A DNA stretch of 64,000 bases from Amoebidium appalachense (lineage: Eukaryota > Protista > Ichthyosporea), in the NCBI GenBank assembly GCA_963693365.1, contig CAVNZM010000008.1, positions 7,938,318 to 8,002,317 of the forward strand. The letters run 5' to 3'. A program made the position numbers and the translations under genes. How positions within the stretch are numbered: the first letter of the stretch is position 1; each line of letters begins with the position of its first letter. Below are positions 3,633 to 64,000 of the stretch, one piece after another. The notes under the pieces were generated by a model. It saw only the letters and a program-made list of their open reading frames with translations. It was not told where the DNA came from and did not search any database.

Positions 3633-3676
<44 letters not shown>

Positions 3677-4344
3677 CAAGCTGGCAGGCAGGCAGGCAGG
3701 CAGGCACCAACACCCACACGTACACACCCAACCCAGCCACCAATCTAACCACCCCACACCCACCTACCCGCCCACACCCTTATCCACCCTCACACAAAAT
3801 ATGTGCGCGCACACACACTCGTACACACACACACACACACACACCCCCACCCACACCCACCCACCCACCCACCCACCCACCCACACACACACACAAGCAC
3901 ACCTCTGCCTCGGTCACTGTCACAAGGTTAAACTGCACCACCTTGCTGTCCACACCGGACGCATACACCCTCGACTCCTCCTGCAGAAGGGTAGACCAAT
4001 CGGAACGGTTAGTTAAGTTTTATAGTTTTAACATAAATTATATCATAACGAGTACACTTCTTGTGTGATAATTTAAGGGACACCATCTGATTGGCTATGG
4101 GCTATCTATTTGACTCGATAAAAAAAATAGGAAAAACGAACGGACCAGGCTAATAAAATATCACGTGCCTCTTTTCTCTCTATGCGTGTGCCTGGGTGCA
4201 TGCTCACACACGTGCGTGTCGATGTGTGGAGATGTGTGCGCACACACGCGTGTGAGTGTATGGTGTATGTGTTCGTATGTATGTGTGTGCATGTGTGTTC
4301 ATTAGTTGAAAGGGGAAGGAAAGGGGGGGAGCAAGCGGGGTAGG

Positions 4345-4376
<32 letters not shown>

Positions 4377-5168
4377 TCACACACCTCATTCACGACAAAC
4401 GCCAATACGTCTGCCTGGTGTGCTCTGTACGATTGCCTTAGGGTTCCGAATTTGCCGTCCCAGAACTGAAATTCGGAAACATCAAACATCAATTCAGTAA
4501 AAGGCAAAAGGTTTACAGACAATATGCTCCCACCTCCCCTCCTCTCCAAACAACTCCCCCCCCCCCCCCCCCCCCCCCCCCCCGGGAAAAAAAAAAAAAA
4601 AAAAAAAAAAAATTCGGAGGGCCCTTCAGACGTTTTTTTCACCACCACCAGCGATAAAATTGCTTACATTCAAATAGAACGGTTTATACTGCCCATCTCT
4701 TGTGTACTTTCTATCTCCTCTCCAGTCTTTCACCATCCCCCCCCCCCCCCTCCCCCCCCCCCCCCAATACCCACCACCACACAAACACACCCATAGACAT
4801 AGTAAAACAAAATAAACAAAAACAATAACAGTAAAAACCATGAATAGAACGCTGCAAGCACGCACGTGCCTACGCAGGAAAAACAAGAACGTGCATGAAC
4901 ACGGAAAAAAACAATCCACGTCATCATAGGAGAGCAAAGAGGAAGATGGGGGTTGGCGAGGGGGAGGGGGGGGGGGGGGGAGGGGGGTAAAACGGAAAAA
5001 GTAATATGGGGCGCGGGGGGAGGGGGGGGGGGGGGGGGTGTTTGAATGCGGAACACGGTACGAAGTACGCATACACGAAGGACACATGCAAAGGCAAACA
5101 TTCAAGTATGCAACATCAGCCATGCGCACAGTATGCGTCATAAGCAGAGCCCATCCTCAGGGAGGGCC

Positions 5169-5214
<46 letters not shown>

Positions 5215-6125
5215 CTAACCTGAGTCGCTCCCAACGAGTCACCGCTGATGATGGTAAAGTCCCTGTCAGGAGAAAAAGACCGTCAGATTGCTACCGGAAA
5301 AACGAAAACACGTCAAAGTGATTTTATAAAAAGGGGGAGCAAACCAGGAAAAACATGAAAGAAAAGAAGGAAAACAATAAAGCAGGCATGTGCGCGTGGG
5401 GAGGCAGCGAGGGGAGGGGGCGGGAAGGAGGGGGGTGAAGAGGTGGGAGGAGGGGGACGCAGGGCATGCGTTGGGGGAGGGGGGGGAGGGGGGGGGGAGG
5501 GGTTAGAATGTATTACTATAGTACGAAGGACACATCCACGACGGACCACACAATGCAGGCTCTTTACAAAAGAGCACACGAAACCAGTTATGCAATGTAG
5601 GTATACCCCATTCTCGAGAAGGCTCCAGGCCATCAACACACACCCGAGTTTGAACCCATTCACCTTGCGCCGGAGGGCAAGGGGAGGGAAGCGGGGGAGA
5701 GCCAAAAAAGAGGGTAGGTGGTGGAGAGAAAGGGGGGGGGGGGGGGGGGGGGGGAGGGGGTGGGGATCCCACCGACCTTAGAATGGCTACACACCACACC
5801 AGGGTGGACTCTTTGTGATAGTCCTCGACTGTTATGCGGAGGGTAGACCGACCTGCAGAAAAAATGGCATGAGAAAGAGAATTGGAGAGATGGGCTGGGA
5901 GGGCCGCGGGGGGGGGGGGGGGGGGGAGAGGGGGACCCGGGGGGTTTGCATGCGTCAAAAAGTACAAAGTACACAAGAACAAACGGATAACACGATGCAG
6001 AATGCAAGCCATACATAAAGAGTATGCATAATAAGCAGAGCCCATCCTCAGGGGGGGCCCACGTCATCCACAGTACCCGTGTTTCGACCTATTCACCTCG
6101 TTAACGAAACCCAACTCAGATACTG

Positions 6126-6166
<41 letters not shown>

Positions 6167-7242
6167 TGTAAGCGTTGCATCATTGGAATGGGAGGTGGGG
6201 GGGACGGGGGGACGGGGGGGTGGGGGGCGGTAGGGGTGGCTGAGTGGGTGGGTGGGTGGGGGGTGGGGGGAGGAGGGGGAGGAGTGTGTGTGTGTGGTGG
6301 GGGGGGGGGGGGGGGGGAGGGAACGGGGATGCAAACTCACACCCAGACACTCAGACACCCAGCCACACACATACACACACACACACGCACAAATACACAC
6401 ACACACACAGACACACACATCTCATCTATCCACACGACCACGCCGACGGAGACTCGGAGGAGCCTGCATATCTACGAGGTGCGTCTACAAGTAGACACAT
6501 ACACACACGGACAGACATGCACAGACACAGGCACATGCACCCCGGCACGTAGACACAGACACACAGATGTGTGTGCACACACGCATCCATGCATGGATGC
6601 ACGTACGGACACGCATGCAGGCAAGCACACAGGGACCGGCACGGACACGCCGCACACACACACGCAAATGCGCACGCACCCATACCCACCCACCCACCCA
6701 CCCACCCACACCTGTCTGTGCATTCCAGAGGTTGATTGTACTGATAGATGACCCAGAGACGAGCACCAAGTCGTCTGGGTGCCACGCCACTGACAAAATC
6801 CGACCTAAAATAACCATATAAGGTCAGTTAGTATTGGCTAATAATACCATATAAGGTTAGTAATGACCTAGAATAGCCATATATGGTTACATATATGGCT
6901 AACCATGACCTGGGCCGAACCCATACATGGATAACAAATGGTAACCGCATATGGTTAGTCATGGCCTAAAATAACCATATATGGACAGTTGATGGGAACC
7001 GCATATTGTTGGGACAGACATAATATAACCATACACGGGGTAGCACTAAGGTAACTATGACATAACCCCTTTCCCTGTAACTTGCTTCTTTCCCCTCGTC
7101 TGAACCTCTTGCCTCCCCTGAGAATGGTCCCCCTTCCCCCCCCTTCCCCCCTCCCCCCCCCCCCCCCCTCCCCCCGGTAGGACGAACTCGGTTCGATATA
7201 CTTCCTGGTTTTCTTTCTTTCTTTCTTTCTTTCTTTTCTTTT

Positions 7243-7277
<35 letters not shown>

Positions 7278-7563
7278 GGGGGGGGGGGGGGGGGGGGGGG
7301 GGGGGTTTGAATGCGGAACACGGTACGAAGTACGCATACACGAAGGACACATGCAAAGGCAAACATTCAAGTATGCAACATCAGCCATGCGCACAGTATG
7401 CGTCATAAGCAGAGCCCATCCTCAGGGAGGGCCCAAGTCATCAATTGCGTCTGAGTTTCGACCCCTTAGCCCGCGTATATACGACTCTCCAACTCAGACA
7501 GCAGCATCAACTGAACTTGGGAGGGTCAACCCGTCTTGATCAAAGACGAACAGGGTTGCTTAT

Positions 7564-7605
<42 letters not shown>

Positions 7606-8188
7606 AGAAAGGCGACAGGGGAGGAGGGGGAGAGAGAGGGGGGGGGGGGGGGGGGGAGGGGGTTTCAACTTTAACATACCCTCAATCTTATCCATAGTGC
7701 GAGAATAAGTGAAGTTGCCGTCCTCCACATCAAACAGCCTGATGCACCCATCCTCACAGCCCACGGCAAGACGTGTCCCCGCGTGATTGGCTGACAGGCA
7801 CCACACTGCACCCCCCTGCGAATCAAGCGTCTCCTGTGGTGGGTTGGAGGATTGTGATTGGTTCCGTGTCAGGTGACGCCGCCGTAGGGAAGATGGGGGG
7901 GGAGGGGTGGGGGGAAGGGGGGTTGAGAGAGGGGGAGAGGGGGAGAGAGTAGGTGAGCAGATGGGATGGAGGGGGAGGGAGGAAGGAGGGAGGGAGGGAG
8001 GGAGGGAAGGAGGAAGGGGGGAGGAAGGGAAAGCAGGGAGAGACGGCAGGGACCCGGGGGGGGGAGGGGGGGGAAGGGGGAGGAAGCGAGGGGGCCGAGG
8101 GGAGGGGGGACATTTATGACGATGGCACGAGGAAGAACGTATTCAACAGTCATTGCTTTATTCGAAGAAAGCCATCCACCCCCCCCTC

Positions 8189-8224
<36 letters not shown>

Positions 8225-8287
8225 CCCTCCCCACCTCCATTTCCCCTTTTCGCCTCTTCTAGGAGACCTTCACAGTGCACCTCCTTA

Positions 8288-8329
<42 letters not shown>

Positions 8330-9631
8330 ACCAGACACACACACACAGACACCACCCCCTTCCTCCCCTCTCCCCCTGGCTAATGTGGCTGTCGACTGCT
8401 AATGTGGCTGTCGAATTGTTCCCGGGTGCGAGAGGTGGCGTGAGGGATCTGAGGGGAGGGGGGGGGAGGGGGGGGAGGTTTGAATGCGGAACACGGTACG
8501 AAGTACGCATACACGAAGGACACATGCAAAGGCAAACATTCAAGTATGCAACATAGCCATGCGCACAGCATGCGTCATAAGCAGAGTCCATCCTCAGGGA
8601 GGGCCCAAGTCATCAATTGCGTCTGAGTTTCGACCCCTTAGCCTGCGTATATACGACTCTCCAACTCAGACAGCAGCATCAACTGAACTTGGGAGGGGGG
8701 GAAGAGAGAGGGAGAGGAGGCGGCAATAATAAATGCATTGCATGAATGCAGGATGGTGAAAGTGTTTTAGATAAACGTGAATCAAATAGGTGCAACACGC
8801 ATACATGTGTGTGCCTACATATTTGCGCGCGTGTGTGCATCATTTTTAGTGACTGTACGTCGTCATACATATGCGTGTGTGTGCGTGTGTGTTTATTTGG
8901 GTGCAGGCGTCTGCGTGAACGGTGCGCGTGTGCGTATTTGTGCCTGCCAACTTGCTTACATGTGTGTGTATTTACTTGCGGGGTGTCTGTATTTGCCACC
9001 AAAATCACCCCCTGCCCCTGCCCCCCCCCCCCAACCCCAGCCCCCCCCCCCCCCCTCCCCCCCCCCCCCCCAAAAAAAAAAAAAAAACGTGCACTCCAGC
9101 ACCTTTGGTTGGAGAGTGTGCAGATTCCATTCCGTGATCTGCCCGTGGAGCCCGGCCGAAAAAAGCCGATCTCCGATCCAGGCAAGTGCCTCTACGCTGG
9201 AATTCTCGCCACCGGCAATTCTCTGCACCATATATGGTTAATCAGATCAGGTGTTTTGTCCCATTCCATTAGGTGGTAATCGAATCAGAGATTCTTCCCC
9301 CCCCCCCCCCCCCCCCCACACACACACACCCACCCCACCCTCTCTCCCGTTTTATGGCCGTTTATCCTCTCCCCCCCCCTTCCAATCCCCCCTCCCCCAA
9401 AGCCCAAGTGTGTGTCAGTGTAAGTGACTATACGTCGTCGCACACGTGCTTGTGTGTGTGTTTGTGCACATCCGGACGTGTGGGTGTGTGCGCGCCCGTG
9501 CACATTCGTATGTGTGCGTGCCAACTTGCTTGCACATGTGTATGTTTGCTTACATGGAGTCTGTATTTGCCATCAAAATCCCCCCACCCCAACCCCAATC
9601 CCCCAACCCTTCCCCCCCCCCCCCCCCCCCA

Positions 9632-9693
<62 letters not shown>

Positions 9694-10621
9694 CCACCAC
9701 CACGACACCAATACCATCCTCTCCACTCACCCCCTCACAAACTTACTCCTGGTAGAACAAAGGAACCCCCCCTCCCCTCCACCCTCCCCGCGACCCCCCC
9801 CTCCCCCCCCCACACACACACAAACACACACCCCACAATTATTGGCAACATGGAGGGGGGCCGGGGGGGGGGGGGGGGGGGGGGGGGAAGGCCCGGGGAG
9901 GTTAAAACGCACCTGCTGCAAAATCCAGTTTTGTGCCACATTCCAAATCTCAATGTCCGCATTAGCCCTGCACACACACACAACGATTAATTCCTTCCCC
10001 CCCCCTTCACCCTCTCTCTCTCCCTCCCCCCTCCCTCCCCTTTCCCTCCCGCCACCCTTCCCCCCTCCCTCTCTTCCTGCCGAGTAACCATTAGAACTCT
10101 GATTCACCACCCAGGCATGACCCCAGCGTACAAGCATGCAGTGTGGAGAGGGGAGGCTGTACGATGGGAGAGATGGGTGGATTGAGGGGTAGAGAGGGGG
10201 GAAAGGGGTTTTTGGCGGGCTGGTTGGGGGGGGGGGGGGGGAGGGGGGGGCGGGGCGAAGGGGGGGGGGGGGGGGGGAAGGGGGGGGGGGGGAGGATAGA
10301 GGGAGAGGGATCACCATTGGAAGAATATGGGAAGAGCGAAAAGGGGCCGGGGGAGGCCGGGGGGGGGGGGGGGGGGGGGGGGGGATGGAGGGAGTCAACA
10401 AGATATATACACCAAAGGAGGTGAAAGTGATCGTTTAATGCCCCCCTCCTTCCCCTCCCCCCGGCCCCCCAAGGGGGAGGGGGGGGGGGGGGGGGGGGGG
10501 GAGGGAGGGCTCCTGAGAGAAGGAAGAAACAGAAAAAAAGGTTTCATGGGGGATGATCAATTGCTTATCGAGAAGCAGGGTGTAGATGTGGGTGGGTGGC
10601 AGGGTGGGTGTGTCTATGTGT

Positions 10622-34625: not shown

Positions 34626-36250
34626 ATGTCCACTCTCCGTTCTACCCCACACGAGGTCCTCGTGCGCATCATACGTGCTCTTCCCCACGACGATCGTCTA
34701 ACTGTTACCCTCGTGTGCAAACGATTGAACCACCTTGCCCGTTCCCCGGAGGATGGCCTCGTTTCATTCTCCTACACTATCGCGCTCGCAGACATGAAGA
34801 TCCTTTATACCTTTTCAGGTTTTTGCAACGGTGGGGCCCCGTCGTAGGTCATGTGAACGTCGATACACGGGGGTGGTGTGCCGGTGAGTCCAGCGTGCCA
34901 CAAATGTGGTTGGCAAGCACTGCACACATGTTGTGCTCGCCGCAACGCGTCGTAAGCATCACATGGGAGAGCTACTTTGGCAAGGAATATGAGGCCGAAC
35001 GGGTCCTGTTTCTATCAGTTTTGGAGGGGATGGGCTCCCGTCTTCAAGCGATGGATTTTATACGAGAAAGGGATACGTATGACGAGCATGTCTCGGGCAG
35101 TTTTTTTGTGCGACACATGTGGGAGAAATGTCCTGGGCTAAAACACATCACCACCCAACATGCCGACATCCCACCCACAGAGGGGTACAACATGGAGAAA
35201 CTGACGGAGGTATCGTTGGGGAATTGCTGGTATGCAGACGAGGGTGCCTTGAACCATTTAATCCAGACGGCGCACGGATTGACCACTTTCATCTGTACCG
35301 TACAAAGTTTTGACGAAGGCAGGGCTCCGGTCACTTCTGTCGATGCGCTCATCACCAGCCTCGGGCGTAATCTGCAAGTGTTGGAATTGGATGGGCCTTA
35401 CCTCACGTTCGATCTTTCGTGCATGGAAAGTTGCCCACACCTCGAGAAATGGGCACTCGAAGGGTTCACACGGATATCCCTCCCACCGGCACTGAAATTG
35501 CACGAGATCTACGTTCGGGCGAAGAAGGCAAATATATCAAATCTGTCTGTTTGCACTGGCCTATGCGAACTGCGTGTTAATGCTAATTAAAGTTTGGATG
35601 CTCCCATCGTCAATCTTCAGTGCACAACACTAAAACGGGTAAAGTTGGAGGTCCCTTCTTCACTCAGTCTAGACACGCTCTGCGGTCTGGAAAATACTGC
35701 GGCAGAAATGGAGTTTACGCACGTATCCCCTTCGTTTGAATCCGAAGATTTCGGGTGGGGGGATGAATCTGGCCTAGTCCTTAATTGGGGCCAGTTTTGC
35801 AACGTTCTGACGCACCTTACATCACTTAGAAATCTATCCGTGATTGGGCTAGACCCAACTATTCACTTCAATCCGGATGTTGCAGCACAGTGTCACCCAC
35901 ACCTAGAGTTGATCAAGCTTAGCAACCGGTCGCAAATTCAGTCTTTGGGACCTGGTGTGAACGAAGACACGTCGTTGACAAGCGTGGTTGTGTCCGACTG
36001 CCCGTCTCTGAGCGACATTTCCGCACTCTCCCTCTGCACCAACTTAACCCGTTTGGTTCTCGAAAAGACGCCCCGAGTCACGAGCGTACGCTGCCTGGCG
36101 AGGCACCCCTCCCTGCCGAAAATCTCGATCGATAATCCCAGGATCGATCTTCGGCCGCTAGCGTCGTGCCCACGCCTGGGCCTGGTTCAGGTGGCAAATT
36201 TTGCCAGAAACGACAATGTAGATCTGCTCGTCACCCTACTTATACCGGTA
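34626..36250 (+). pseudogene. Intronless F-box/leucine-rich-repeat gene with a frameshift and an in-frame stop
   Basis: F-box motif [31 protein letters not shown]. The frame changes near 34752, and there is a TAA at 35588 with in-frame continuation. LRRs include LTSVVVSDCPSLSDISALSLCTNLTRLVLEKTPRVTSV. Confidence 0.75.
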
Positions 36251-36351
36251 GCAAGCCCCCCCCCCGCCCCTTTCCCCTTCCTCCCTCCCTTCTTGCCCTT
36301 TCACGCACAACTCACACGACGCACAAGCACACCCACACACGCACGTGCACA

Positions 36352-45401: not shown

Positions 45402-46123
45402 GTCTGCATTGCTCTTTTAGAGGCTGACTTGCTTGCTGTGCCTCGGTAGGTTTTGAGGGGGGCCTGTTGGGAAGGAGCAGTAATGATGTCTTCTTGCGTC
45501 CGGGAATGTGGTCTGTCGGAGTCAACATCGATCGATGCATATTTATATAACTAGTTGGAGCAAACTAGTTTCACGCATACACGTACACTTAAGGTTTTGC
45601 CCGCTGGTGTCCTTTGTCACTTGTCGCTTTATTTTTATTTCGTAGCCTTGGCTTTTTCAGTTATATTGGTGGTTATGTAGTCTGTGACAGGCTGCTCGTT
45701 GCCCTCATTATAACGGATCAATAAACCCGAGTCAAAAGAAAAAAAAAATTCTTTGGATGCGATGGAGGTTCTATGGGGGGACTCATCAAGAAGCCAGGCG
45801 GCCCAGGCCACATGCATCATGTTTTGGAGGACCAAGATTAGATGTCCATAAGCCAATCGGAATTGACGATGGGATAAAATTTGCTTCATTCTGATTGGTT
45901 GTCACACCACGGGGTTTCCCGATTGTTCTTCGAATGACATTTTCTATCACTATCAGACAGTTCTCCAATATTAGAACAGAAAACGGTCTCTACCCAGATG
46001 GCCAGATGGCCAGGTCAAATTCAGTGTGTGAAAAAAGTGGATAAAACGGGATAAAACGGGAGCCAAAACGATCTGGCCATCTGGCCATGTGGCCATGGAA
46101 TCTCTATATCTAAAAATAGCTGC

Positions 46124-46480: not shown

Positions 46481-46560
46481 GGGGGGAGGGGGGGGGCAGG
46501 GGGGGCACACGTGCAGGAGGCAGGGGGGGGGGGGATAAATGTTGTGTGTGCATATGTATG

Positions 46561-47470
46561 TTGGTGCCAAGAGGCAGCGCCCTACACGTGTGGTGTCTAA
46601 ACAGCCTATAGGCATGCTCCGTGTGCAGGCACCAATTTCTACCCTCTTCTGGTTGGTGCCAAGAGGCAGCGCCCTACACGTGTGGTGTCTAAACAGCCTA
46701 TAGGCATGCTCCGTGTGCAGGCACCAATTTCTACCCTCTTCTGGTTGGTGCCAAGAGGCAGCGCCCTACACGTGTGGTGTCTAAACAGCCTATAGGCATG
46801 CTCCGTGTGCAGGCACCAATTTCTACCCTCTTCTGGTTGGTGCCAAGAGGCAGCGCCCTACACGTGTGGTGTCTAAACAGCCTATAGGCATGCTCTGTGT
46901 GCAGGCACCAATTTCTACCCTCTTCTGGTTGGTGCCAAGAGGCAGCGCCCTACACGTGTGGTGTCTAAACAGCCTATAGGCATGCTCCGTGTGCAGGCAC
47001 CAATTTCTACCCTCTTCTGGTTGGTGCCAAGAGGCAGCGCCCTACACGTGTGGTGTCTAAACAGCCTATAGGCATGCTCTGTGTGCAGGCACCAATTTCT
47101 ACCCTCTTCTGGTTGGTGCCAAGAGGCAGCGCCCTACACGTGTGGTGTCTAAACAGCCTATAGGCAGGCATGCTCCGTGTGCAGGCACCAATTTCTACCC
47201 TCTTCTGGTTGGTGCCAAGAGGCAGCGCCCTACACGTGTGGTGTCTAAACAGCCTATAGGCATGCTCCGTGTGCAGGCACCAATTTCTACCCTCTTCTGG
47301 TTGGTGCCAAGAGGCAGCGCCCTACACGTGTGGTGTCTAAACAGCCTATAGGCATGCTCCGTGTGCAGGCACCAATTTCTACCCTCTTCTGGTTGGTGCC
47401 AAGAGGCAGCGCCCTACACGTGTGGTGTCTAAACAGCCTATAGGCATGCTCCGTGTGCAGGCACCAATTT
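46561..47470. repeat. 92-bp tandem array, 10 near-identical copies (last one partial)
   Basis: Units start at 46561, 46653, 46745 and so on to 47393. One unit carries a 4-bp insertion. Confidence 0.95.
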
Positions 47471-48896: not shown

Positions 48897-49299
48897 TTTG
48901 ATTGGTCGACTAAGTGGCATTCTCTTTTGATTTGTATTTGAATTGATCGGTCTTGATTTAATTTGTTTCTTTTCTCTTTTAGTTTGTATTTGAATATACT
49001 CGGTCCAAATTGATTTGTTCTTTGTAATCTGACTAGACTATCATGTACGTACTTACTCTTTTTCTATACAATCACATGTGTTCATATTAAAGGATTCTGT
49101 GTACGTGGACCACGGAAACATACACCATTTTTTGCAGTGCTTCATGCTATAAAATAACCATGAGAGACACAAACAAATACATTAAGTGTGTACACGTCTA
49201 CCCATAGGCCCAAGTGTTGACATGTCTGCCCACAGTTCCCTAAGGCTTAAAGCACACATCTGCCTGTATGCCATAAACTTTACTTTCACCACAAGGCAC

Positions 49300-50582
49300 C
49301 CACCTAAGTACACGTCTGCACAGCCCCACCCTAAGTACACGTCTGCACCACCCTAAGTACACGTCTGCACCACCCTAAGTACACGTCTGCACCACCCTAA
49401 GTACACGTCTGCACCACCCTAAGTACACGTCTGCACCACCCCAAGTACACGTCTGCACCACCCTAAGTACAATATGCACAGCCCCACCCCAAGTACACGT
49501 CTGCACCACCCTAAGTACACGTCTGCACCACCCTAAGTACACTCTGCACAGCCCTAAGTACACGTCTGCACCACCCTAAGTACACTCTGCACCACCCTAA
49601 GTACACGTCTGCACCACCCTAAGTACACTCTGCACCACCCTAAGTACACTCTGCACAGCCCTAAGTACACGTCTGCACCACCCTAAGTACACGTCTGCAC
49701 CACCCTAAGTACACTCTGCACCACCCTAAGTACAATATGCACAGCCCCACCCCAAGTACACGTCTGCACCACCCTAAGTACACGTCTGCACCACCCTAAG
49801 TACACGTCTGCACCACCCTAAGTACAATATGCACAGCCCCACCCCAAGTACACGTCTGCACCACCCTAAGTACACGTCTGCACCACCCTAAGTACACTCT
49901 GCACAGCCCTATTAGTAAGTACACGTCTGCACCACCCTAAGTACACTCTGCACCACCCTAAGTACACGTCTGCACCACCCTAAGTACACTCTGCACCACC
50001 CTAAGTACACTCTGCACAGCCCTAAGTACACGTCTGCACCACCCTAAGTACAATATGCACAGCCCCACCCCAAGTACACGTCTGCACCACCCTAAGTACA
50101 CGTCTGCACCACCCTAAGTACACGTCTGCACCACCCTAAGTACAATATGCACAGCCCCACCCCAAGTACACGTCTGCACCACCCTAAGTACACGTCTGCA
50201 CCACCCTAAGTACACTCTGCACAGCCCTAAGTACACGTCTGCACCACCCTAAGTACACTCTGCACCACCCTAAGTACACGTCTGCACCACCCTAAGTACA
50301 CTCTGCACCACCCTAAGTACACTCTGCACCACCCTAAGTACACGTCTGCACCACCCTAAGTACACGTCTGCACCACCCTAAGTACACGTCTGCACCACCC
50401 TAAGTACAATATGCACAGCCCCACCCCAAGTACACGTCTGCACCACCCTAAGTACAATATGCACAGCCCCACCCCAAGTACACGTCTGCACCACCCTAAG
50501 TACACCGGCACCACCCTAAGTACAGGCACCACCCTAAGTACAGGCACCACCCTAAGTACACGTTGCACAGCCCCACCTAAGT
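49300..50582. repeat. Minisatellite array with a 22-bp core (CTAAGTACACGTCTGCACCACC) and length variants
   Basis: Period 22 measured at 49331, 49353 and 49375. Variant units CTAAGTACACTCTGCACCACC and CTAAGTACAATATGCACAGCCCCACC recur in higher-order blocks. Confidence 0.95.
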
Positions 50583-53069: not shown

Positions 53070-53906
53070 ATGTCGCAGCCCGTGTCGTACCACAGAAGAT
53101 CCTTCAGAAGGTCAATTCGCACAAGGGTAGTTCGCTGGCTCAAAGCCTTCAAAGGGACAGCTCGTCCCTCGCCCATGCCCTCCTCCTCCGTCGGATCCCT
53201 CGGTGGCAGCAGCGACAGCGTGGTGTCCCAGCGCTCCCAGGTCAGCCGAAACGACTTGCCCCAATCCAGGTCGATGGTCACCGCATCCCCGGCCCCCTCC
53301 AGTGGACACGTCGAAAACACGAGGTGGTTGAGTCCAGACCTGTTCGACGCTTCTACCGACTGCAGCGGCAGCATCGTGTCCGACAGCATCGTGTCGCCCT
53401 TCCCGAGTCGTGCGTGGAGCTGCAGCGGCCGGCTCGCCACCCTCCCGGCGCCGTTCGAGTCGAACGTCATGCTAGACACAAGCAGCGACAGCCGATTGAC
53501 AAATAGCTTCAGGTCCTGCTCAAAAGCCATGTTCAATTCTGGTGCAGATGCAGACTGGCAGCTCCCCGCGTCCAACACGGCTTTTTATACCCTTCCCAAC
53601 TTGCGTCTGCGTCGGCGCACACTCATTCGCAAGGTGCCAGTTCTCGAGGCGCTGCATGACCACGAGTGCGCGCTTGCATGTTTCGGTGTGTGTGTGCGCG
53701 GGCCCGACACGGTGTGTGAGGTGCTGAGCGTGCGCTGTTGCACAAGCATGTGGACCGCAGGTGTGCGACCGGGAGACATTGTGGTGGCGTGCGAGATCAA
53801 GCGCGCAGAATCAGGGTGGCGCAAGGTGTCCCTCGAGCTCGAGGAGGGTGCATGGACCAGCAACCTGTGCGCGGCAGGGTGCAAGCGGAGAAAGTGGTTT
53901 CACTAG
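53070..53906 (+). CDS. Hypothetical Ser-rich protein with a possible C-terminal PDZ-like domain
   Basis: Long ORF; the segment FGVCVRG...EVLSV...SMWTAGVRPGDIVVA resembles the PDZ AGLxxGDxI motif. Confidence 0.55.
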   Translation: MSQPVSYHRRSFRRSIRTRVVRWLKAFKGTARPSPMPSSSVGSLGGSSDSVVSQRSQVSRNDLPQSRSMVTASPAPSSGHVENTRWLSPDLFDASTDCSGSIVSDSIVSPFPSRAWSCSGRLATLPAPFESNVMLDTSSDSRLTNSFRSCSKAMFNSGADADWQLPASNTAFYTLPNLRLRRRTLIRKVPVLEALHDHECALACFGVCVRGPDTVCEVLSVRCCTSMWTAGVRPGDIVVACEIKRAESGWRKVSLELEEGAWTSNLCAAGCKRRKWFH

Positions 53907-54301: not shown

Positions 54302-55711
54302 CTACGGGCCCTGCTTCTGGCAGTCCTTCTTGTGCTCACCCCACCCGCGGGTCTGGCAGTCCCTGCTGCAGTAGTAGACATGCTTACAGGCCGAGCACTT
54401 CTTGGTGGGCCCGGTCGAGCCGCAGGTGGCACAGGCCACAGAGGGCACCTTGTCGATGAAGTGCCTGACGGCCCGGTCGCACCATTCATACATACACATG
54501 TTGTCCATGTCGTACTCCGTGGACACGGGAAGACCCCACACCGCCAACTCCGCAATCTGCCGAACAGCCTCGGGCGTGGTGTGCGCGAGGCCGGAAGACG
54601 CGCACAGTACATGAAGCATCATTCTGAAGACAATACCGGCGCCCGTGCTGATGTTTCCGGCATAGAGGGCATTGTAGTCCCGCTCCTCCAGCAAGTAGCG
54701 GTGGAAGACGCAGTAGTGCCTGAAACACGCGAAGTAGGTAGCCATGTTGCGTTCGGTCGCAGTTACCGTTGGGTCGTTCACCCACCTCCGCTCCTCTATA
54801 GCACGCATCTCGGCCGCCAGGGTAGCCTCGCATTCCATGTAGCGCTCCTTGTTGCCAAACACACGCAGGTCGCCGCACTCCAGAACTTTCAGCATCAGTT
54901 TGCAGACCGGGTCCGAGTGGAACCGCAAGTGGCTGTCCAGGGTGTAGACGACGACCTCGTTTTCCGACACCGTTGGGTCTTGGTGGGTGGGTTGCTCCTT
55001 GCAGTCCTTCTTGTGCTCGGGCCACTTTTGTTTCATACAGATGTCGTTGCAGAAGTAGGCGTTTCTGCAGCGGGAGCACTTCTTTGTGTCGACGGGCGAG
55101 CGGCACTGGAGACATGACACGGAAGGCAACTCGTTCACAAAGTGCTCGACGGCCCGGTTAGCCCAATCATTGTACACCACGTTGTCAATGTCCTTGCATA
55201 ACGTATACGTACCCAAGGCGGAAGTGGCCGGCTCTTGACTGAAGTGGGCAGGGGGTCGGGCCTTGAGACCGGACCGCTCGCATAGCGCCGTCCCCACGAG
55301 CATGAAGAAGTCCTGAACCCCTTGACCGAGCGTGCCCTCGTGGAGAGCCTCATGGTCCGGCTTCCCCAGCACGTAGCGCTGGAAGGCGGCGTACATTGGG
55401 AATGCGATGGAGTGCAGACAAGTGTCCCAGAGGGGCGGCACCCGCCCAGGCCCGTGGGGTTGTCTCTCCAAATGCAGCAGCAAAGTTTTCATGTCGTTTT
55501 CAAGGACTGAACGGAACGCAGCGAAGCTCTCCTGTGTTTCGAAGATGCGGAGGTCGCCGTCTCTCGCAACTTCCAGCAGGCGAGCGCTGGCAGGGTCCCG
55601 GTGGAGCCGATACTTGTCGTCCACGGCATAGACGACGACCTTGTCCGTGTCCGAGCCGGGGGGCCGGACGACGAAAGGCAAAGCCACGGCCTCTTCAGGT
55701 GTTCGGTCCAT
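54302..55711 (-). CDS. Protein with two tandem ~230-aa modules, each ending in a MYND zinc finger
   Basis: CLQC...KKCSRCRNAYFCNDICMKQKWPEHKKDC and CATC...KKCSACKHVYYCSRDCQTRGWGEHKKDC. Confidence 0.9.
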   Translation of the reverse strand: MDRTPEEAVALPFVVRPPGSDTDKVVVYAVDDKYRLHRDPASARLLEVARDGDLRIFETQESFAAFRSVLENDMKTLLLHLERQPHGPGRVPPLWDTCLHSIAFPMYAAFQRYVLGKPDHEALHEGTLGQGVQDFFMLVGTALCERSGLKARPPAHFSQEPATSALGTYTLCKDIDNVVYNDWANRAVEHFVNELPSVSCLQCRSPVDTKKCSRCRNAYFCNDICMKQKWPEHKKDCKEQPTHQDPTVSENEVVVYTLDSHLRFHSDPVCKLMLKVLECGDLRVFGNKERYMECEATLAAEMRAIEERRWVNDPTVTATERNMATYFACFRHYCVFHRYLLEERDYNALYAGNISTGAGIVFRMMLHVLCASSGLAHTTPEAVRQIAELAVWGLPVSTEYDMDNMCMYEWCDRAVRHFIDKVPSVACATCGSTGPTKKCSACKHVYYCSRDCQTRGWGEHKKDCQKQGP

Positions 55712-56115
55712 GCTTGTGCGTGAATGCCAGCGTGTGCTGATTTGTCTAGTGAAACGATCCGCTGAGAGGAGTGTGTGAGAGAGAAAGCGAAAAAGTGACG
55801 CCTTTTGTAGTGCAGTCCGATCAGCCATCTGAAAAGCACTGGTATGGCATGACCGTAGCGCCATTTGATTGGAGATCTCGTTAGATTACGCCTCACGCGC
55901 TGATTGGTCAGCCGCGATTGGGTCGTAAATATATAATTCCGATTGGATCATGTGGTTACATCTCATGTAAAGTCAATTTTGATTCCATCAGATAAATCAT
56001 GTCCATCCAATCAAAACGCGATAGCTGTCAGCCTTGCCCTGCCTGGCAGGCATAAAATGCCGCGACTCAGCAGATTGCTGACACTTTTCACTCTTCCTGT
56101 TTCTCTTCACCAACA

Positions 56116-56553
56116 ATGTCCGGCACACCATCTCCAAAGGCCGGCCCTGACCCAGCCGAGCAGCCTGCCAGTCCACGGCCCCCAGGGTCATTTGCCACGT
56201 GGCCTCCCGAATGGCAGCAGTACCTGTACGAGGAGGCAAAGCGCGACTGCGACCGTGCGCGCGCCAGCGAGCGGGAGGCGCAGCGCAAGTACAAGGTGCT
56301 GCGCAAGAAGTACCTGCACCTCAAGGCCAACTTGCGCCTGTACTCATGGAGGGTCCTGAAGAACCTCAGCGACGACGAGCACATGTACGATGAGGAGTTC
56401 CAGGGGCCCCCCGCCGAGGAGCGCCCCATTTGCATCTTGAGCTCCGACGAGGAGCCCCTCGACAAGAAGCCCCCCGAGAAGAAGCGCGCGCGGTCGCCCG
56501 AGGACACTTCGCCGCCCACCGAGAAGCGCAGCCGTGCTGGACACGAGGAGTAA
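56116..56553 (+). CDS. Hypothetical protein (coiled coil, acidic stretch, NLS-like KKRAR)
   Basis: 145-aa ORF with biased codons, a TATA-like CATAAAA upstream and AATAAA right after the stop. Confidence 0.7.
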   Translation: MSGTPSPKAGPDPAEQPASPRPPGSFATWPPEWQQYLYEEAKRDCDRARASEREAQRKYKVLRKKYLHLKANLRLYSWRVLKNLSDDEHMYDEEFQGPPAEERPICILSSDEEPLDKKPPEKKRARSPEDTSPPTEKRSRAGHEE

Positions 56554-56725
56554 ATAAAAATTGCCACTTCCTCTTCCACACCTGTGTTGTGGACCGTAGC
56601 GCTTGCATGCATGGTGCTGCTCGTGCTGGCGTGCTGGCACTCAGGGGGAGGGGGGGGGGGGGGGGGAGAGCTCAAAGGTATAAAAGGCAGCAGGCATGCG
56701 TAAATATTTTCTCAGTATTACTATA

Positions 56726-58255
56726 ATGCAGTCACACCAACAGACTGGACAGGAGACAATGTTTGGAGGTATCGACCAGGAACGCATCAGAAAAAGGAGC
56801 AAAGAGCGCTTTGAAGCCTTTGAGTACCTCGGAGCTGATGCCTATAAGGGGCTGATGATGAACCCAGCCACCTGCGAATTCAGAGAGTGGACCAGAGAGG
56901 AGGTGGAAGAATTTATAGGCGCCAACGTTGCACACATCAGCGGGACAACCCTTTTTGTACTCAAAACATTTGACCATGAGATCAAACAGCATGTTGCAAA
57001 GATCGTCAGCAAGCAGGAAATCTACGCAACACTTTCACTCTTTTCATTTCGACAGCCGAATATGAAGGTTGGAAAGCAATGGAAGCCCCAACCTCCAATC
57101 AACGGGACAGAAATCTTAAAAACAACAGCAATCCCCATCTACACAAAGATCATATTTGACCCGGCTGATCCTGACCCCAAAACTGGAAAACGAAAGCCAG
57201 ACAACACCGACTCAGTCTATCGTCCATACAATATCTATCGAGGACTCCGTTTCAGGTTTGACCCGGAGTATTGCCTGCGTCAAGACCTGACCAGCTCGTT
57301 TCATGAACATGCCAGAACGGTTCTATGCAACGGCCGGGATGACGAGTACAGCTATCTGCGAATGTGGGTTGCTCATCTGTTTCAGTACCCTGGAAGCAAA
57401 CCAGGTACAGCGCTGCTGTTTGTATCTGAGCAGGGAACCGGAAAGAACGTGTGGTGGCAGGCAATCATGGACATCCTTTCACCCGAATACTACGCCTATG
57501 TCATTCACCGGGAGCACATGTCAGGAAAGTTCAACCAGCACATTGCAAACAAGCTTCTTGTGCTATGTGATGAGGTGACCTGGGGTGGGTCGCACGAAAC
57601 AAACAATTTGATGAAGGCACGCATAACACAGCCGACCATGATGTTGGAGAAAAAGGGCTGTGATGCAATCAACACCAACTCCTATGAGCGGTATGTGGTC
57701 TTGTCAAACGAAGACTGGCCTGTACGAGTGGAAACAAGTGATAGGCGCTGGGCATGTTTTGGTGTCAGTCCGGAGCGAATTGGTGACCACAAATACTTCG
57801 AGGCCTTTGTGGAATATCACAGACGTCCAGAAGTGTTAGAAGCTATTTACCACGACTTCATGAGCATGCCAGACATCCCCAAAACCATGCCCAGACCTAT
57901 GGATAACGACACAAAGATGAACATCAAATCGATCAGTCGGAGCGACGAGGCTCAATTTCTCAAGGACCTCATCTCGCACACAAACGGCTGTGAGGAGTTT
58001 GACTTCATTTACAGTGGCTGTGCAGTTACCCCTACAGGCTTGTTCCAGCTGTACCAAGCTTGGCACAAGATCAATGCCCGAGACACGAAACTGCCAAGCA
58101 ACCGGACTTTCGGGATGGCTATCAGGAAAATCCTAGGCAAGCCGAAGACTACACTGGAAGCAAACATCTGCAGATGGCCATACCATCCCCCAACTGGTGC
58201 CAGCACGAAGGCAGATTGCTATGTATTATGCCCCAGAGCCATTTCGAAGGCATGA
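56726..58255 (+). CDS. D5-like superfamily-3 helicase (primase-associated type) with a putative C-terminal winged-helix domain
   Basis: YNIYRG motif, Walker A LLFVSEQGTGKN, Walker B LLVLCDE, sensor VVLSN and arginine finger SDRRW. TATAAAAG at 56680. Confidence 0.9.
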   Translation: MQSHQQTGQETMFGGIDQERIRKRSKERFEAFEYLGADAYKGLMMNPATCEFREWTREEVEEFIGANVAHISGTTLFVLKTFDHEIKQHVAKIVSKQEIYATLSLFSFRQPNMKVGKQWKPQPPINGTEILKTTAIPIYTKIIFDPADPDPKTGKRKPDNTDSVYRPYNIYRGLRFRFDPEYCLRQDLTSSFHEHARTVLCNGRDDEYSYLRMWVAHLFQYPGSKPGTALLFVSEQGTGKNVWWQAIMDILSPEYYAYVIHREHMSGKFNQHIANKLLVLCDEVTWGGSHETNNLMKARITQPTMMLEKKGCDAINTNSYERYVVLSNEDWPVRVETSDRRWACFGVSPERIGDHKYFEAFVEYHRRPEVLEAIYHDFMSMPDIPKTMPRPMDNDTKMNIKSISRSDEAQFLKDLISHTNGCEEFDFIYSGCAVTPTGLFQLYQAWHKINARDTKLPSNRTFGMAIRKILGKPKTTLEANICRWPYHPPTGASTKADCYVLCPRAISKA

Positions 58256-58562
58256 GTTCTTCTCCCGACCCATCCCGATCAATGTCCCGACGGAAACTCG
58301 AAATCGGGAGGTGTCGGGAGATAACGATTGGTGTAATGTCACGTGACTTTGCAGTTTTACTAACTGATTTCTCATAGCTTCCTTATAAGGTTATTTTATC
58401 GGGGGAATCGGGAGGTCGGGGGAGGGTTAGAGCAAGAGGGGGACCAAAAAATGGAGCCATTTGATTGGAGGGTGGGGGGTTTTGGGGGTTTTCGTAGGGA
58501 GCAACAGAGAACCCCCGATCAGTCCAGATGGTTTATTTTGTATCAAGACTTTACAGTGAAAC

Positions 58563-59033
58563 ATGGAGGCACAGCTGGCCTTTGTGTGTGATTGGGAGAC
58601 TTGTAAAATGCCTTTTGATAGCAATGCAGCACTGAAGCGTCACGCTCTCACACACCTGGGTCACCGTCCTTATGTCTGTTCATGGCCAGGGTGCTCAAGA
58701 AGATTTACACAAAAGCAGTCATTTGAGGTTCACTATCGGCTTCATACAGGAGAAACACCATACAAGTGCAGTTGGGAGGGTTGCATTGCTGTTTTCAGAT
58801 GCAAAAGCCAATTGAAAATGCACCAGTACAAACACACAGATGCAAGGGCGTTTAAATGCACATGGGATGGATGTGAAGCTAACTTCAAAAGCAAAGATGC
58901 ACTCGTAGTGCATATGAATCGCCACACTGGAGATCGTCCGTATCAATGTAAGGAACCAGGCTGCAAGTTCTCGTATCGTCAGCGTGCAAGTCTCTGGTAT
59001 CACGTCCGAAAACACCATACCATCACCCAATAA
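58563..59033 (+). CDS. C2H2 zinc-finger protein with 5 fingers
   Basis: Five CxxxxC...HxxxH fingers with HTGETPY and HTGDRPY linkers. Confidence 0.92.
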   Translation: MEAQLAFVCDWETCKMPFDSNAALKRHALTHLGHRPYVCSWPGCSRRFTQKQSFEVHYRLHTGETPYKCSWEGCIAVFRCKSQLKMHQYKHTDARAFKCTWDGCEANFKSKDALVVHMNRHTGDRPYQCKEPGCKFSYRQRASLWYHVRKHHTITQ

Positions 59034-59253
59034 ACCTGGCACCAGTGAGCAAGCAGGTCTTGCAATATGTCTCAAACAACTTGCAAAGACACTGCGCCCG
59101 GGCCTGGGTGGCTGGGAGGGGCAGGCGAGGCACGCACGGCCCCAGGAGGCGGATGTGGCACCTGCGCCGGTGAGACACACGAGCCACCCCCAGCCACAGA
59201 TGCCCCTAATTGATATACAGGGCATGGTTCGCTTTTTTCTTGCGCCAACTACA

Positions 59254-59946
59254 ATGGCTAGTCCACGTGACGAAGCGTGGGTGAGGGAGCGACTTATGCG
59301 ACTGGAGGGTGGGAAGAGCGAGGTGTATACTCCCGCCGGTAGGATCGACCTGCTGACGGACACGGATGTCATTGAAGTGAAGAAGGTTCAATATTGGAAA
59401 TCGGCGATGGGGCAGGTACTTGCATACAAAGACCACTACCCCACCCATCGTGCGCGAGTCCATCTATATGGCTATGCCTCCGCTGACACGTACAAGGTAG
59501 CTGTGGAGACCATGATGCGTCATAACATCACCGTAACGGCAGAACATGATACACTGCAGCATATATGGGGTCCACACCCCAAATCAGAAACTACAAAGCC
59601 CAAGAATGCCCAGAGGAAGCAAGTAGAACGGCAATTTTTAAGAGATTTGCTCTCCCATACCAACGGATGTGAGGACATGACTTTTATAAAGGATAGCTGC
59701 TTGGTGAGATCATCGGGGCTGTACCAGCTATACCTTTCATGGCATAAACTGAATCTCTCTTCCACAGCGACTCCAAGTTTAAAAATCTTCGGCATGACCC
59801 TCAGGAAGATTTTGGGAAAACCCAAAGCTGCCAAAGTGAAAAGAGTTACGCGCTGGCCAGACCACCCTCGCGTGTCCGAAACAAACAAGGTTGTCTATTG
59901 CTACAGGATCGATGGTCAGGTCATCAACAGCCCGGAGCAGCAGTAG
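59254..59946 (+). CDS. PD-(D/E)xK-type nuclease fused to a copy of the helicase C-terminal domain
   Basis: EVYTPAGRIDLLTDTDVIEVKK...WKSAMGQVLAY is a restriction-like fold motif. The C-terminal ~100 aa align with the last ~100 aa of the helicase. Confidence 0.85.
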   Translation: MASPRDEAWVRERLMRLEGGKSEVYTPAGRIDLLTDTDVIEVKKVQYWKSAMGQVLAYKDHYPTHRARVHLYGYASADTYKVAVETMMRHNITVTAEHDTLQHIWGPHPKSETTKPKNAQRKQVERQFLRDLLSHTNGCEDMTFIKDSCLVRSSGLYQLYLSWHKLNLSSTATPSLKIFGMTLRKILGKPKAAKVKRVTRWPDHPRVSETNKVVYCYRIDGQVINSPEQQ

Positions 59947-60019
59947 CCGTTGGAAATTATTTTCTCCCCCTCTCAATAACACCATGTATCTGTGTACGTG
60001 CAAGACCCCCCAAGGCATC

Positions 60020-60244
60020 ATGGTCCGCCCGTACAAGGTGTATCGGTGCACAGTCGACGGTTGCGGCTACTCCACCACCCGCAACAGCAACTTCGCGGCG
60101 CACAGCGACAGGCATGCGGGGATTCTGCGGCACGTGTGCGCGCATGCGGGGTGCGGGCGGCAGTTTCGGTATGCCTTGAGCCTCAAGCGGCACATGCGGC
60201 TGCACACCAAAGAACCGGGGAGCCCGATTCGGACCCGAAACTAG
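60020..60244 (+). CDS. Small C2H2 zinc-finger protein with 2 fingers
   Basis: YRCTVDGCGYS...HSDRH and HVCAHAGCGRQF...LKRHMRLH. Confidence 0.8.
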   Translation: MVRPYKVYRCTVDGCGYSTTRNSNFAAHSDRHAGILRHVCAHAGCGRQFRYALSLKRHMRLHTKEPGSPIRTRN

Positions 60245-62191: not shown

Positions 62192-63312
62192 CCCGGCCCA
62201 TATCCACCTGCGCGTTCACCACCCTGTTCTCCTGCCCACCGGCCCCTACCCAGTCCAACGTTTTCTCCACAAACCAGAGAGAACACGGCAGTGCCCATGA
62301 ACGTTTGGCCCGCAATTTGCTAGAGAACAGCATCGCCGGTCCCCCCCATGTCTCCCGGAACCCAAGAGAACACCATGGCATCCCCAACCATGTCTCCCGG
62401 ATCCTTGGAGAACAGGTGCCGGGGGGTGGACCCTGTTCGCCGATTGCTTTTTCCTAGGAGCGGGCATGAGGGGCACGCGAGGCATGCACGGCCGGCGAGG
62501 CACAGTGGTCTCACAGGACCACGGAGCCCGAAAGCCCGACCCAACTGGCGCGGGCGTGGGGGCCCGGGAGGCATGCAAGGGGGAGACACAGCGGGCTCAC
62601 GGGTCTGTGTGCCACAGGCGCCCCTCCCAGCCCCCCCCAGCCCCCCAGCCACCCGCTACAGGCAACGCGGAACCACAACTTCGTTCCAAAGCAGCGCCAG
62701 ATGTGCCAATAAACGGCCAAAGCAGCGCGCAGTTGGCTACCCTGCTATTCGATCTGATTGGTCGAAAGCGTTCAAGATCCTGACCAAGATTTCAGAATCT
62801 GTTTGTAATCGTTGAGAGGACTATTTCTTCGCGATTTCTATTTGAAATGTGATCGAATTGTTTATAAAACTATCTTGAATATGACATTAGTTATAAAACG
62901 TTTGATTTTATTCTTATGTTTGGTTCTAAGGGATAGAAGAGAAAAAGGCATCAGCTGTCATTGAAAAATCTTGAAGCACTGGCATTGCCTGCTCTTCGCA
63001 GGATCTGATTGGATCTTGAATTGGTTGTCATCCAATCCCCAACAGCCAATCGTACAGTCTGGTGATCTGGATCTGAAAGCATTCTTCCAATCAAACGCGT
63101 GACTGTCATTTCAAGCATTGTTTAATTGACCAATCGGATATCATTTCGTCAGCATCAGTTGGGAATTGGCTTCTAAGGGCACGGCACAGCTGATAGGGTG
63201 TCACTTTCACACACCTTCTGTAGTGTCAACATCAAAGGCTTTGAAGTCGCTTGTTAGGTCGCCTTTTACTGATTTTTCGCTTTGCACCCCCATTTCTACA
63301 CACACACACACC

Positions 63313-64000
63313 ATGGAACAAGTAGGCAAGCGCAGCTACAAATGGCTGACCGATCACCTTTTCACTAAGAACACCAAGGACAAATACATGGTCAAGTGCC
63401 GCGCTTGTGTCGCTGACATGCACAGCGACCAGATCCCCTCGCATGTGAAGGTGTGCAGGGAATTAAACCACTGCCAGGACGCCATCCTTGCCCTCGTCGC
63501 CGCAGAGAACGCCGTCGGGCCCGCGCGCGACAAGGTGCGTCCGTTGGTCACGGAGTTCGGGGGGGTGCGCCGTGGCTGCACAGTCCGTTGTGCCGGGTCT
63601 GCGCCAGTACCTGCAGCAGCCTGGGCGCAACGTCGTGGGCGCGGCTAAGGCACGGGCGGTGGCGCAGGCGCTCCACGACATGGCAGAGGCGGCTCGGGCG
63701 GTTAAGGACGGGTATGTGGGTTTTTGGTCGGCGGAGGATGCTGTGGAGCGCAACAAGCAAGCGCTGCGCCATCGGATTGCCGAACGTGTCCACCGCCGCC
63801 AGGGCGGGGAGGGGCCCGGCCAGTTCGCCTACGTTCCCCACCCCCCGGTTCTCCCCGTCCAAACCTCGTCCCCTTTGCGCTCACACCCGGGGAGCTTGCA
63901 AGTGGCAACGTGCTCCGGCAGTGCGAGATATTTCTGTTTGATCGAGTGCAGAGGGATCCGAAGTACCCTCCCGGGAAACGTATCGACTCGGACGATGTGT
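63313..64000 (+). CDS. Hypothetical protein with an N-terminal C2HC-type zinc finger; apparent frameshift; runs off the window
   Basis: VKCRAC...SHVKVC. An open helical reading (QQPGRNVVGAAKARAVAQALHDMAE...) resumes in another frame after the G7 run at about 63560. Confidence 0.55.

Follow-up and report, generated by a model that had tools for sequence, protein, structure and literature searches.

A 64,000-nt stretch of the Amoebidium appalachense genome (contig CAVNZM010000008.1; hereafter the window) encodes a 230-residue protein in which a predicted PD-(D/E)xK nuclease is fused to a winged-helix domain homologous to the C-terminal tail of a superfamily 3 (SF3) helicase encoded upstream of it. 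A repeat array that is a good candidate for the replication origin of this helicase lies between the two genes, and relatives of the fusion protein appear to have acquired their tails from helicase genes repeatedly. We tentatively propose that the protein is directed to replication origins and would cut those of rival elements.

A Predicted Nuclease with a Helicase-Type Tail

An earlier note on this locus had aligned the end of the helicase (EAQF... from 57947) with that of the nuclease (ERQF... from 59626). BLASTP bears out this homology, with 49 identities over 101 positions (49%, E 2e-31) between helicase residues 408-507 and nuclease residues 126-226, the latter counted from 59251; the nuclease most likely starts at the ATG at 59254, which matches the start of its homologues. 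Over 105 codons, the two tails are identical at 57%, 63% and 30% of first, second and third positions, respectively. The proportion of synonymous differences is saturated (pS 0.94) and that of nonsynonymous differences is 0.38 (pN), thus indicating that the tail copy is an old duplicate under purifying selection. Saturation at synonymous sites also indicates that no homogenisation is ongoing between the two tails.

AlphaFold models of both proteins fold the tail, with high confidence, into three helices and a wing hairpin. In the ESM Atlas, the nuclease tail gave a top match of 0.96 in a cluster that is 64% Pox_D5, and PF03288 matched weakly in 4 of 15 family members (best E 0.0058). Structural neighbours of the nuclease tail include the winged helices of ORC, TcpK and RFX5 at modest Z-scores (5.5-5.9). 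The origin-binding domain of P4 alpha was absent among the structural matches listed, a list filled by nuclease-domain matches, and a tail profile run against Protein Data Bank (PDB) sequences returned chance matches only (colicin immunity proteins, E≥0.25). The models and matches together support the assignment of the tail as a Pox_D5-type winged helix, as had been presumed for the helicase; in the text available, the winged helix of P4 alpha and other D5-family proteins is described as binding the origin (PMC4889955). A complex prediction for the helicase tail with the nuclease tail scored 0.02. Stand-alone Pox_D5-type winged-helix proteins of 87-101 residues form ESM Atlas clusters in phages and bacteria, which indicates that the domain also travels alone.

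The designation of the other half of the protein as a PD-(D/E)xK nuclease likewise holds. Residues 6-99 of the model superpose on NucS (2vld) with a Z-score of 10.3 and a root-mean-square deviation (rmsd) of 2.3 over 88 aligned residues, and on EndoMS with a Z-score of 10.4; the next matches are other PD-(D/E)xK proteins. Both features that define this superfamily, a restriction-endonuclease-like fold and acidic/lysine catalytic residues, are present, and Pfam gave no GIY-YIG match in the nuclease. All six residues E7, D32, E41, K43, Q54 and Y58 are kept in 7/7 intact fusions. D32, E41 and K43 are each present in 153 of the 154 domains compared, Q54 and Y58 each in at least 150 of them, and E7 in 146 of the 147 domains that cover it. 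The model and this conservation support an intact PD-(D/E)xK domain of NucS-like fold, which we predict to be a nuclease.

The family to which this domain belongs has no Pfam name and comprises 1481 representatives at E≤0.001. Nearly all relatives among the best 150 of these match the nuclease domain only. Another region precedes the domain in 116 of 153 family proteins, and 13 of 66 scanned proteins match a DNA-binding family (helix-turn-helix (HTH) types, Bro-N, Rha or KilA-N) at E≤0.01, two of them above the curated cut-off. Giant-virus KilA-N fusions were among the top structural matches (31-36% identity in the structural alignments). Eight cyanobacterial plasmid records contain the nuclease domain, and the nuclease domain only; phage records gave no match. 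Because it is found with varied DNA-binding partners, the domain behaves as a partner-swapping catalytic module.

Probable Repeated Acquisition of the Tails

Five further clusters share the nuclease-then-winged-helix order (P0043/P0191, P0001, P0045/P0193, P0046 and P0047; 32-43% identity) and one intact cluster, P0044/P0192, has the domains reversed. With these six the window protein makes seven intact fusions, so that it is no one-off; the pS and pN values given above likewise answer the suspicion that the fusion might be an isolated degraded copy. A partial member, P0049, has a nuclease whose front half is broken or missing. P0191 is named by NCBI as a hypothetical protein of Daphnia sinensis and is encoded on a 183-kb contig.

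In a quick tree of 91 columns, which also contained the 45 top-scoring other rows of the available set, the seven intact fusions are grouped into a single clade by their nuclease domains (SH-aLRT 95). Monophyly of the nuclease tails is rejected by the approximately unbiased (AU) test, with p-AU 0.0002 for 15 rows (P0045/P0193 not included), 0.004 without the long-branch or distant rows P0001, P0046, P0047, P0007 and P0008, and 0.039 if the group need not include the reversed protein. Individual nuclease tails instead pair with different helicases (P0044 with P0003, 62%; P0049 with P0005, 57%; P0046 with P0007, 34%). This pattern is incompatible with a single ancient duplication and subsequent vertical descent, and suggests that tails were captured or converted from helicase genes repeatedly. 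The earlier picture, in which the element grafted its own origin-binding domain onto a nuclease, thus survives as regards the copy of the tail on a PD-(D/E)xK domain, but not as a single graft.

The fusion protein P0001 and the closest helicase found, P0002, are each encoded on one contig, 7,624 nt long in both cases and of one and the same source, which suggests that they are a linked pair and that the linkage is conserved. Their tails are only 33% identical, with a long branch. The window nuclease tail, taken over its whole length, is 47% identical to that of its neighbour helicase and 47% identical to that of P0002.

Searches for comparable loci returned distant material. A single-helicase query against viral contigs found no DNA of close relatives; alignment-based searches gave 80 + 80 distant primase-helicase loci at 22-37% identity (46% in one short segment), and the nuclease domain occurs in 0/160 of them. 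A closer helicase alignment retrieved one locus, in a giant-virus metagenome-assembled genome (MAG), from the viral contigs and none from prokaryote genomes. This MAG locus, the nearest helicase locus obtained, contains a primase-fused version, with 28% identity over residues 56-363. Nine viral loci with the nuclease domain contain neither the tail nor the helicase. Among longer proteins, the tail profile gave five matches, all already known, which is weak evidence that there is no third fusion partner.

The Helicase and Its Candidate Origin

The structure model of the helicase (predicted local distance difference test (pLDDT) 84.5) aligns with the C-terminal region of NrS-1 over 379 residues (Z 25.3, rmsd 5.0) and with SaPI5 PriRep (Z 19.0). 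In both cases the helicase spans only the region C-terminal to the primase, and it thus lacks their N-terminal primase domain. The SF3 ATPase core and the C-terminal winged helix that characterise the P4-alpha/D5/NrS-1/SaPI initiator-helicases are both present, and motifs that we take to be Walker A, B and C and the arginine finger are visible. Seven close homologues were found, five of them 496-521 residues long, and alignments to NrS-1 and the African swine fever virus (ASFV) PrimPol extend to residue 502. A second in-frame ATG is located at 56696. The relative P0007 has an N-terminal extension (residues 1-170) in which HUH-like motifs, assigned by eye, were not confirmed by Pfam or PDB searches.

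The earlier note had placed a palindrome cluster between the helicase and the nuclease. This reading was rejected; the 307-bp gap behind the helicase gene shows no unusual folding (z -1.40, with 8/100 shuffles as good), and a single inverted pair of 19 nt is conspicuous (58261-58279 / 58303-58321). What adjoins the helicase is instead an origin-like array of nine YCCCGAY repeats, which lie on the forward strand at 58263, 58273, 58285 and 58513 and on the reverse strand at 58303, 58313, 58398, 58407 and 58415. Three forward and two reverse copies are thus followed by a 76-bp AT-rich core (58322-58397), three reverse copies and one distant forward copy, with a spacing within blocks of mostly 8-12 bp. 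The core is 67% AT (73% in 58353-58397) versus 42% and 29% in the flanking repeat blocks. Shuffled sequences (n=2000) contain 0.43 copies on average and 4 at most, and in a motif-free test no 5-mer occurred nine times in any of 1000 shuffles. The whole window contains 22 copies, of which nine are in the array, and no other 307-nt stretch holds more than two. Rfam gave no match in 55700-60200.

Origins of Staphylococcus aureus pathogenicity islands (SaPIs) are described, in the text available, as 6-12 penta- or hexanucleotide iterons that directly follow rep, lie in opposite orientations on the two sides of an AT-rich centre and are bound by the C-terminal winged helix (PMC9371898). More generally, P4-alpha/SaPI-type SF3 helicases are reported to load, via the winged helix, on iterons right behind their own gene (PMC9371898, PMC4889955, PMC2777425, PMC4234260). 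The array agrees with the SaPI-type layout in iteron number, place, orientation and AT-rich core, and by analogy it is a good candidate for the origin of the helicase.

Clusters of repeats also occur behind other members of the helicase family. The 300 nt after distant DUF5906 helicases hold one in 62 of 147 loci before dereplication and, after dereplication at 60% identity, in 16 of 65 loci (13 with both orientations) versus 9 of 162 control genes, as judged with an approximate dinucleotide shuffle. These clusters are candidate origins for the DUF5906 primase-helicases of uncultured viruses. Loci L006, L027, L045, L075, L081, L099, L108, L145 and L149, among others, have strong clusters, with up to 17 copies of one 5-mer in both orientations.

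Proposed Function and Alternatives

A precedent for such a fusion is the origin-directed nuclease Odn (Gp88) of vibriophage ICP1 which, in the text available, combines a nuclease with a captured origin-binding domain and cuts rival origins at iterons (PMC8263062). The same source gives 42% identity between Odn and RepA_N, reports that the iterons are required for cutting, and describes resistant origins with similar iterons at changed spacing (PMC8263062). By analogy, the 230-residue protein would be an origin-directed nuclease that binds the iteron-type origins of this helicase family and would cut those of related rival elements. A modular, homing-nuclease-like family would pick up helicase tails repeatedly and so keep pace with origin changes among competing elements. 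A cut at the origin of an incoming or allelic element would result in exclusion, or in repair from the cutter's own helicase-origin-nuclease block. The origin of the cutter itself would escape because its iterons differ in sequence or spacing, or because its own helicase occupies it; the altered spacing of Odn-resistant origins shows how a near-self cutter could achieve this.

Among the four functions put forward in the earlier note, cutting the origins of related elements fits best, and we regard it as quite possible that the nuclease cuts rival origins, or homes, in this manner. The tail match of only 33% in the likely linked pair P0001/P0002 fits a non-self target. The helicase, the C2H2 zinc-finger gene that lies between the array and the nuclease, and the nuclease share a low G+C content at third codon positions (GC3 0.57, 0.44 and 0.57, respectively, vs 0.72-0.85 in five flanking genes), and therefore look like a swapped block. 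Points in favour of rivalry are thus the Odn precedent, the modular, homing-nuclease-like behaviour of the family, the 33% identity in the likely linked pair, tails that are not being homogenised, and a codon usage that sets the block apart. The widest form of the proposal, in which eukaryotic mobile elements wage origin-targeted warfare in the nucleus and one PD-(D/E)xK lineage steals the winged helices of sibling SF3 helicases in either order, cuts iteron origins and spreads a primase-less cassette by homing, strikes us as doubtful.

Several observations weigh against rivalry. The nuclease shares its element with a matching helicase, and neither a rival element nor an allele lacking the nuclease turned up. 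The recognition helix and wing start of the nuclease tail are closest to those of its own neighbour, with 13/18 identical residues vs ≤10/18 for the other seven helicases in a region picked after the alignment was seen, and the two window tails are sisters, weakly (61/82), in the best tree; this would fit self-targeting as well. The linkage of P0001 and P0002 is deduced from a single feature, the 7,624-nt length of both contigs, and the searches found no DNA around close relatives. Structural Z-scores of the tail are below 8, 49 of the 65 distant helicase loci have no downstream repeat cluster, and a second zinc-finger gene outside the low-GC3 block also has a low GC3 (0.53), which blurs the right edge of the block. 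Repeated capture of tails is predicted by self-matching and rival-targeting alike.

The winged helix could instead be one of many interchangeable tethers, providing a low-specificity hold on DNA, or the protein could act as an origin competitor or copy-number regulator through DNA binding or pairing with the helicase tail. That nearly all listed relatives (best 150 of 1481) match the nuclease domain only, and that the partners of the domain include KilA-N, Bro-N, Rha and several HTH types, would agree with a tether. For the regulator variant, Cnr, which pairs with P4 alpha, provides a model; homo- and heterodimerisation of winged helices reportedly regulates P4 alpha, according to the title of a 2002 study by Yeo et al. 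A generic tether, however, needs no repeated replacement by tails of different helicases, and a pure regulator has no need of the catalytic residues that are kept in 7/7 fusions. We consider this explanation unlikely.

Alternatively, the nuclease might serve the replication of its own element by binding the element's iterons and cutting or nicking there, which would supply a 3' end to the primase-less helicase, or by resolving replication products; at each change of origin, its tail would be renewed from the helicase to which it is linked. The helicase itself contains no primase domain, and 43-64 kb yielded neither a primase nor a polymerase gene. The resemblance of the recognition helix to that of the neighbour (13/18) and the weak sister relationship of the two tails would agree with such a role, and repeated capture would agree with re-matching to a changed origin. 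However, one or the other missing gene may lie beyond the window, synonymous sites are saturated and no homogenisation is ongoing, and the tails of the likely linked P0001 and P0002 are only 33% identical, with a long branch. We know of no PD-(D/E)xK enzyme that forms a covalent protein-DNA link as rolling-circle initiators do, which also counts against this role. Barth et al. 2024 suggest, in the text available, that a separate nicking nuclease could replace the HUH domain beside primase-less D5-like helicases (PMC11296320). On balance, a role in self-replication appears rather improbable.

A role in excision or integration of the element, also raised in the earlier note, finds no support and is very improbable; XisH, an excision-control factor, has the same fold (Z 7.1; ESM Atlas 0.84, a lead only), but many unrelated functions use this generic fold, a winged helix suggests an internal origin as target rather than element ends, and near 44-47 kb, where the left end is presumed, YCCCGAY shows no enrichment. 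That the duplication is neutral or decayed is just as improbable and largely refuted, on sequence grounds, by pS 0.94 vs pN 0.38 and by the invariant catalytic residues of the seven intact fusions, which occur in two domain orders; against this stand only the broken relative P0049 and the lack of an RNA run among the listed sequencing-run holders of the stretch.

Setting of the Locus

Up to about 44 kb, (CA)n and poly-G/C tracts are abundant in the window and reading frames are fragmentary only, as expected of the intron-rich eukaryotic DNA that this part appears to be. From about 46 kb to the end of the window, compact genes, mostly without introns, follow long tandem arrays and encode a double-MYND protein, the helicase, two C2H2 zinc-finger proteins, the nuclease, a patatin and a Fic protein. 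We infer that this block is an integrated virus-like or mobile element (Table 1). The two arrays and a 23-nt inverted pair at 45994-46092, close to the presumed left end, are possible terminal or subterminal repeats. DUF5906 helicases are described as typical of mavirus-related elements in the text available (PMC13215967). A Pfam scan of 76 frames of at least 90 residues (43-64 kb, except for some frames around 60.3 kb and the tandem arrays) and of the main open reading frames gave no match to a capsid, packaging ATPase, integrase or protein-primed family B polymerase (pPolB); the element extends past the right end, and this inventory covers the part in the window. Whereas the earlier note treated the helicase and nuclease as neighbours, and both do lie at one locus, the first zinc-finger gene separates the array from the nuclease.

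Table 1. Annotated features of the element within the window.
Feature	Position	Strand	Remarks
Tandem array	46560-47470		92-bp unit x 9.9; near presumed left end of element
Tandem array	49296-50568		22-bp unit x 57; near presumed left end of element
SF3 helicase without primase, 509 aa	56726-58255	+	DUF5906, NrS-1/SaPI PriRep/D5-like; Pfam PF19263 E 5.6e-20
Helicase C-terminal winged-helix domain (Pox_D5 type)	57938-58252	+	Predicted origin-binding; three helices and wing hairpin in model
Candidate replication origin	58263-58519	both	Nine YCCCGAY iteron-like repeats; starts 8 bp after helicase stop
C2H2 zinc-finger protein, 156 aa	58563-59033	+	PF00096 E 1.2e-17, 4 stretches; five fingers by eye
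Nuclease and winged-helix fusion, 230 aa	59254-59946	+	Two domains, flexible linker residues 109-116; model pLDDT 91.1
PD-(D/E)xK nuclease domain (predicted)	59266-59550	+	E7, D32, E41, K43, QxxxY (Q54, Y58)
Winged-helix domain homologous to helicase tail	59602-59928	+	49% identity, E 2e-31

A 27-nt direct repeat (74% identical; 56687-56713 / 59940-59966) flanks the helicase-to-nuclease block. Each copy is just 5' of a start codon, so that the repeat could equally well be a promoter motif common to both genes or mark a boundary of the block. A G/C-rich element, about 100-180 bp long and with inverted arms, recurs in intergenic regions of the block (59100-59205 and 62458-62636). A third copy directly follows the second zinc-finger gene, and related words occur at 46.1-46.5 kb; possible identities are a terminator hairpin, a site bound by a zinc-finger protein and a small mobile repeat. 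The last gene (63313-64000, +), with a weak zinc-finger match, appears to be interrupted by a short intron or a frameshift and continues past the end of the window. A short frame at 53588-53906 (+) resembles a PDZ domain, as judged by eye, and gave no Pfam match. Outside the block, a weak match marks a leucine-rich-repeat gene at 34904-36300, and scattered short frames at 2937-10317 (-) resemble exons of a UTP4-like WD40 ribosome-biogenesis gene, to which Pfam gave no name. Among 23 listed rows of sequencing runs, 20 contain the stretch or part of it, and 14 hold at least half of its words (maximum 0.58). The rows with the stretch represent three organism codes and three named studies.

Significance

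Replicon conflict has been proposed as a driver of replication-module swapping in Polinton-like viruses and virophages, according to the text available (PMC11296320), and phage Odn was the only biochemically shown origin-directed nuclease found in our literature search. The present locus provides a eukaryotic candidate in which enzyme, donor helicase and likely substrate are contained within 3.2 kb. Natural variants with tails that follow different helicases make the question of self versus rival directly testable with a few purified proteins. With the array, this helicase clade gains its first candidate origin sequence, and the fusion hints at a function for the large nuclease family, which has no name and counts 1481 representatives. 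If our proposal is correct, an Odn-like system would have evolved independently in eukaryotes, and the protein would be a compact natural nuclease that is retargeted by the swap of a 100-residue domain.

Comparison with Known Systems

The helicase resembles SaPI Rep/PriRep, P4 alpha and NrS-1 in its SF3 core, C-terminal winged helix and iterons right behind the gene, the last being a candidate here. It differs from them in its eukaryotic setting and in the lack of a fused primase, or of any primase found in 43-64 kb. The texts available on these systems do not describe any nuclease with that winged helix. In entomopoxvirus termini and Polinton-like viruses, D5-like accessory helicases are flanked by short repeats and linked to T5orf172 nucleases, and homing or nuclease conflict has been proposed, in the text available, to drive the turnover of replicons (PMC11296320). 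Short repeats, a modular nuclease nearby and, presumably, the setting of a eukaryotic DNA virus are common to those systems and the present one, but their nuclease is of the GIY-YIG type, and the available text reports no winged helix common to both proteins.

The KilA-N/HTH proteins of giant viruses and cyanobacteria contain the same nuclease domain as the fusion protein. In those proteins the nuclease usually follows a KilA-N, Bro-N, Rha or HTH domain, in place of which a helicase-type winged helix is found here; our literature search found no tested function for these PD-(D/E)xK proteins. No paper was found on a fusion of a PD-(D/E)xK nuclease with a D5-type winged helix, in a search that did not extend to supplements and most subscription journals. 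The claim that this architecture had no description thus holds for the exact domain pair, but not for the principle, which is known from Odn (PMC8263062, in the text available).

As in Odn, a modular homing-type nuclease is combined with a copy of the origin-binding domain of an initiator, at a similar distance (42% for Odn, 49% here); in both cases the gene is small and an iteron target is nearby or in a rival, the candidate array being the one here. The binding domain is therefore copied from an initiator as it is in Odn, but the T5orf172/GIY-YIG domain is absent. Odn joins T5orf172/GIY-YIG to RepA_N, whereas the present protein joins PD-(D/E)xK to a D5/P4-alpha winged helix, and because both domains differ it is not a member of the Odn family. 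Odn is encoded by a phage and acts against a separate satellite, whereas a donor-type helicase and a candidate origin are found here in the same element. In further contrast to Odn, as far as the available text describes it, the setting is eukaryotic, the tails were probably captured several times, and both domain orders occur. By this analogy the fusion protein likely works as Odn does, and it would represent a convergent variant with a different nuclease and a different binding domain in a eukaryotic setting.

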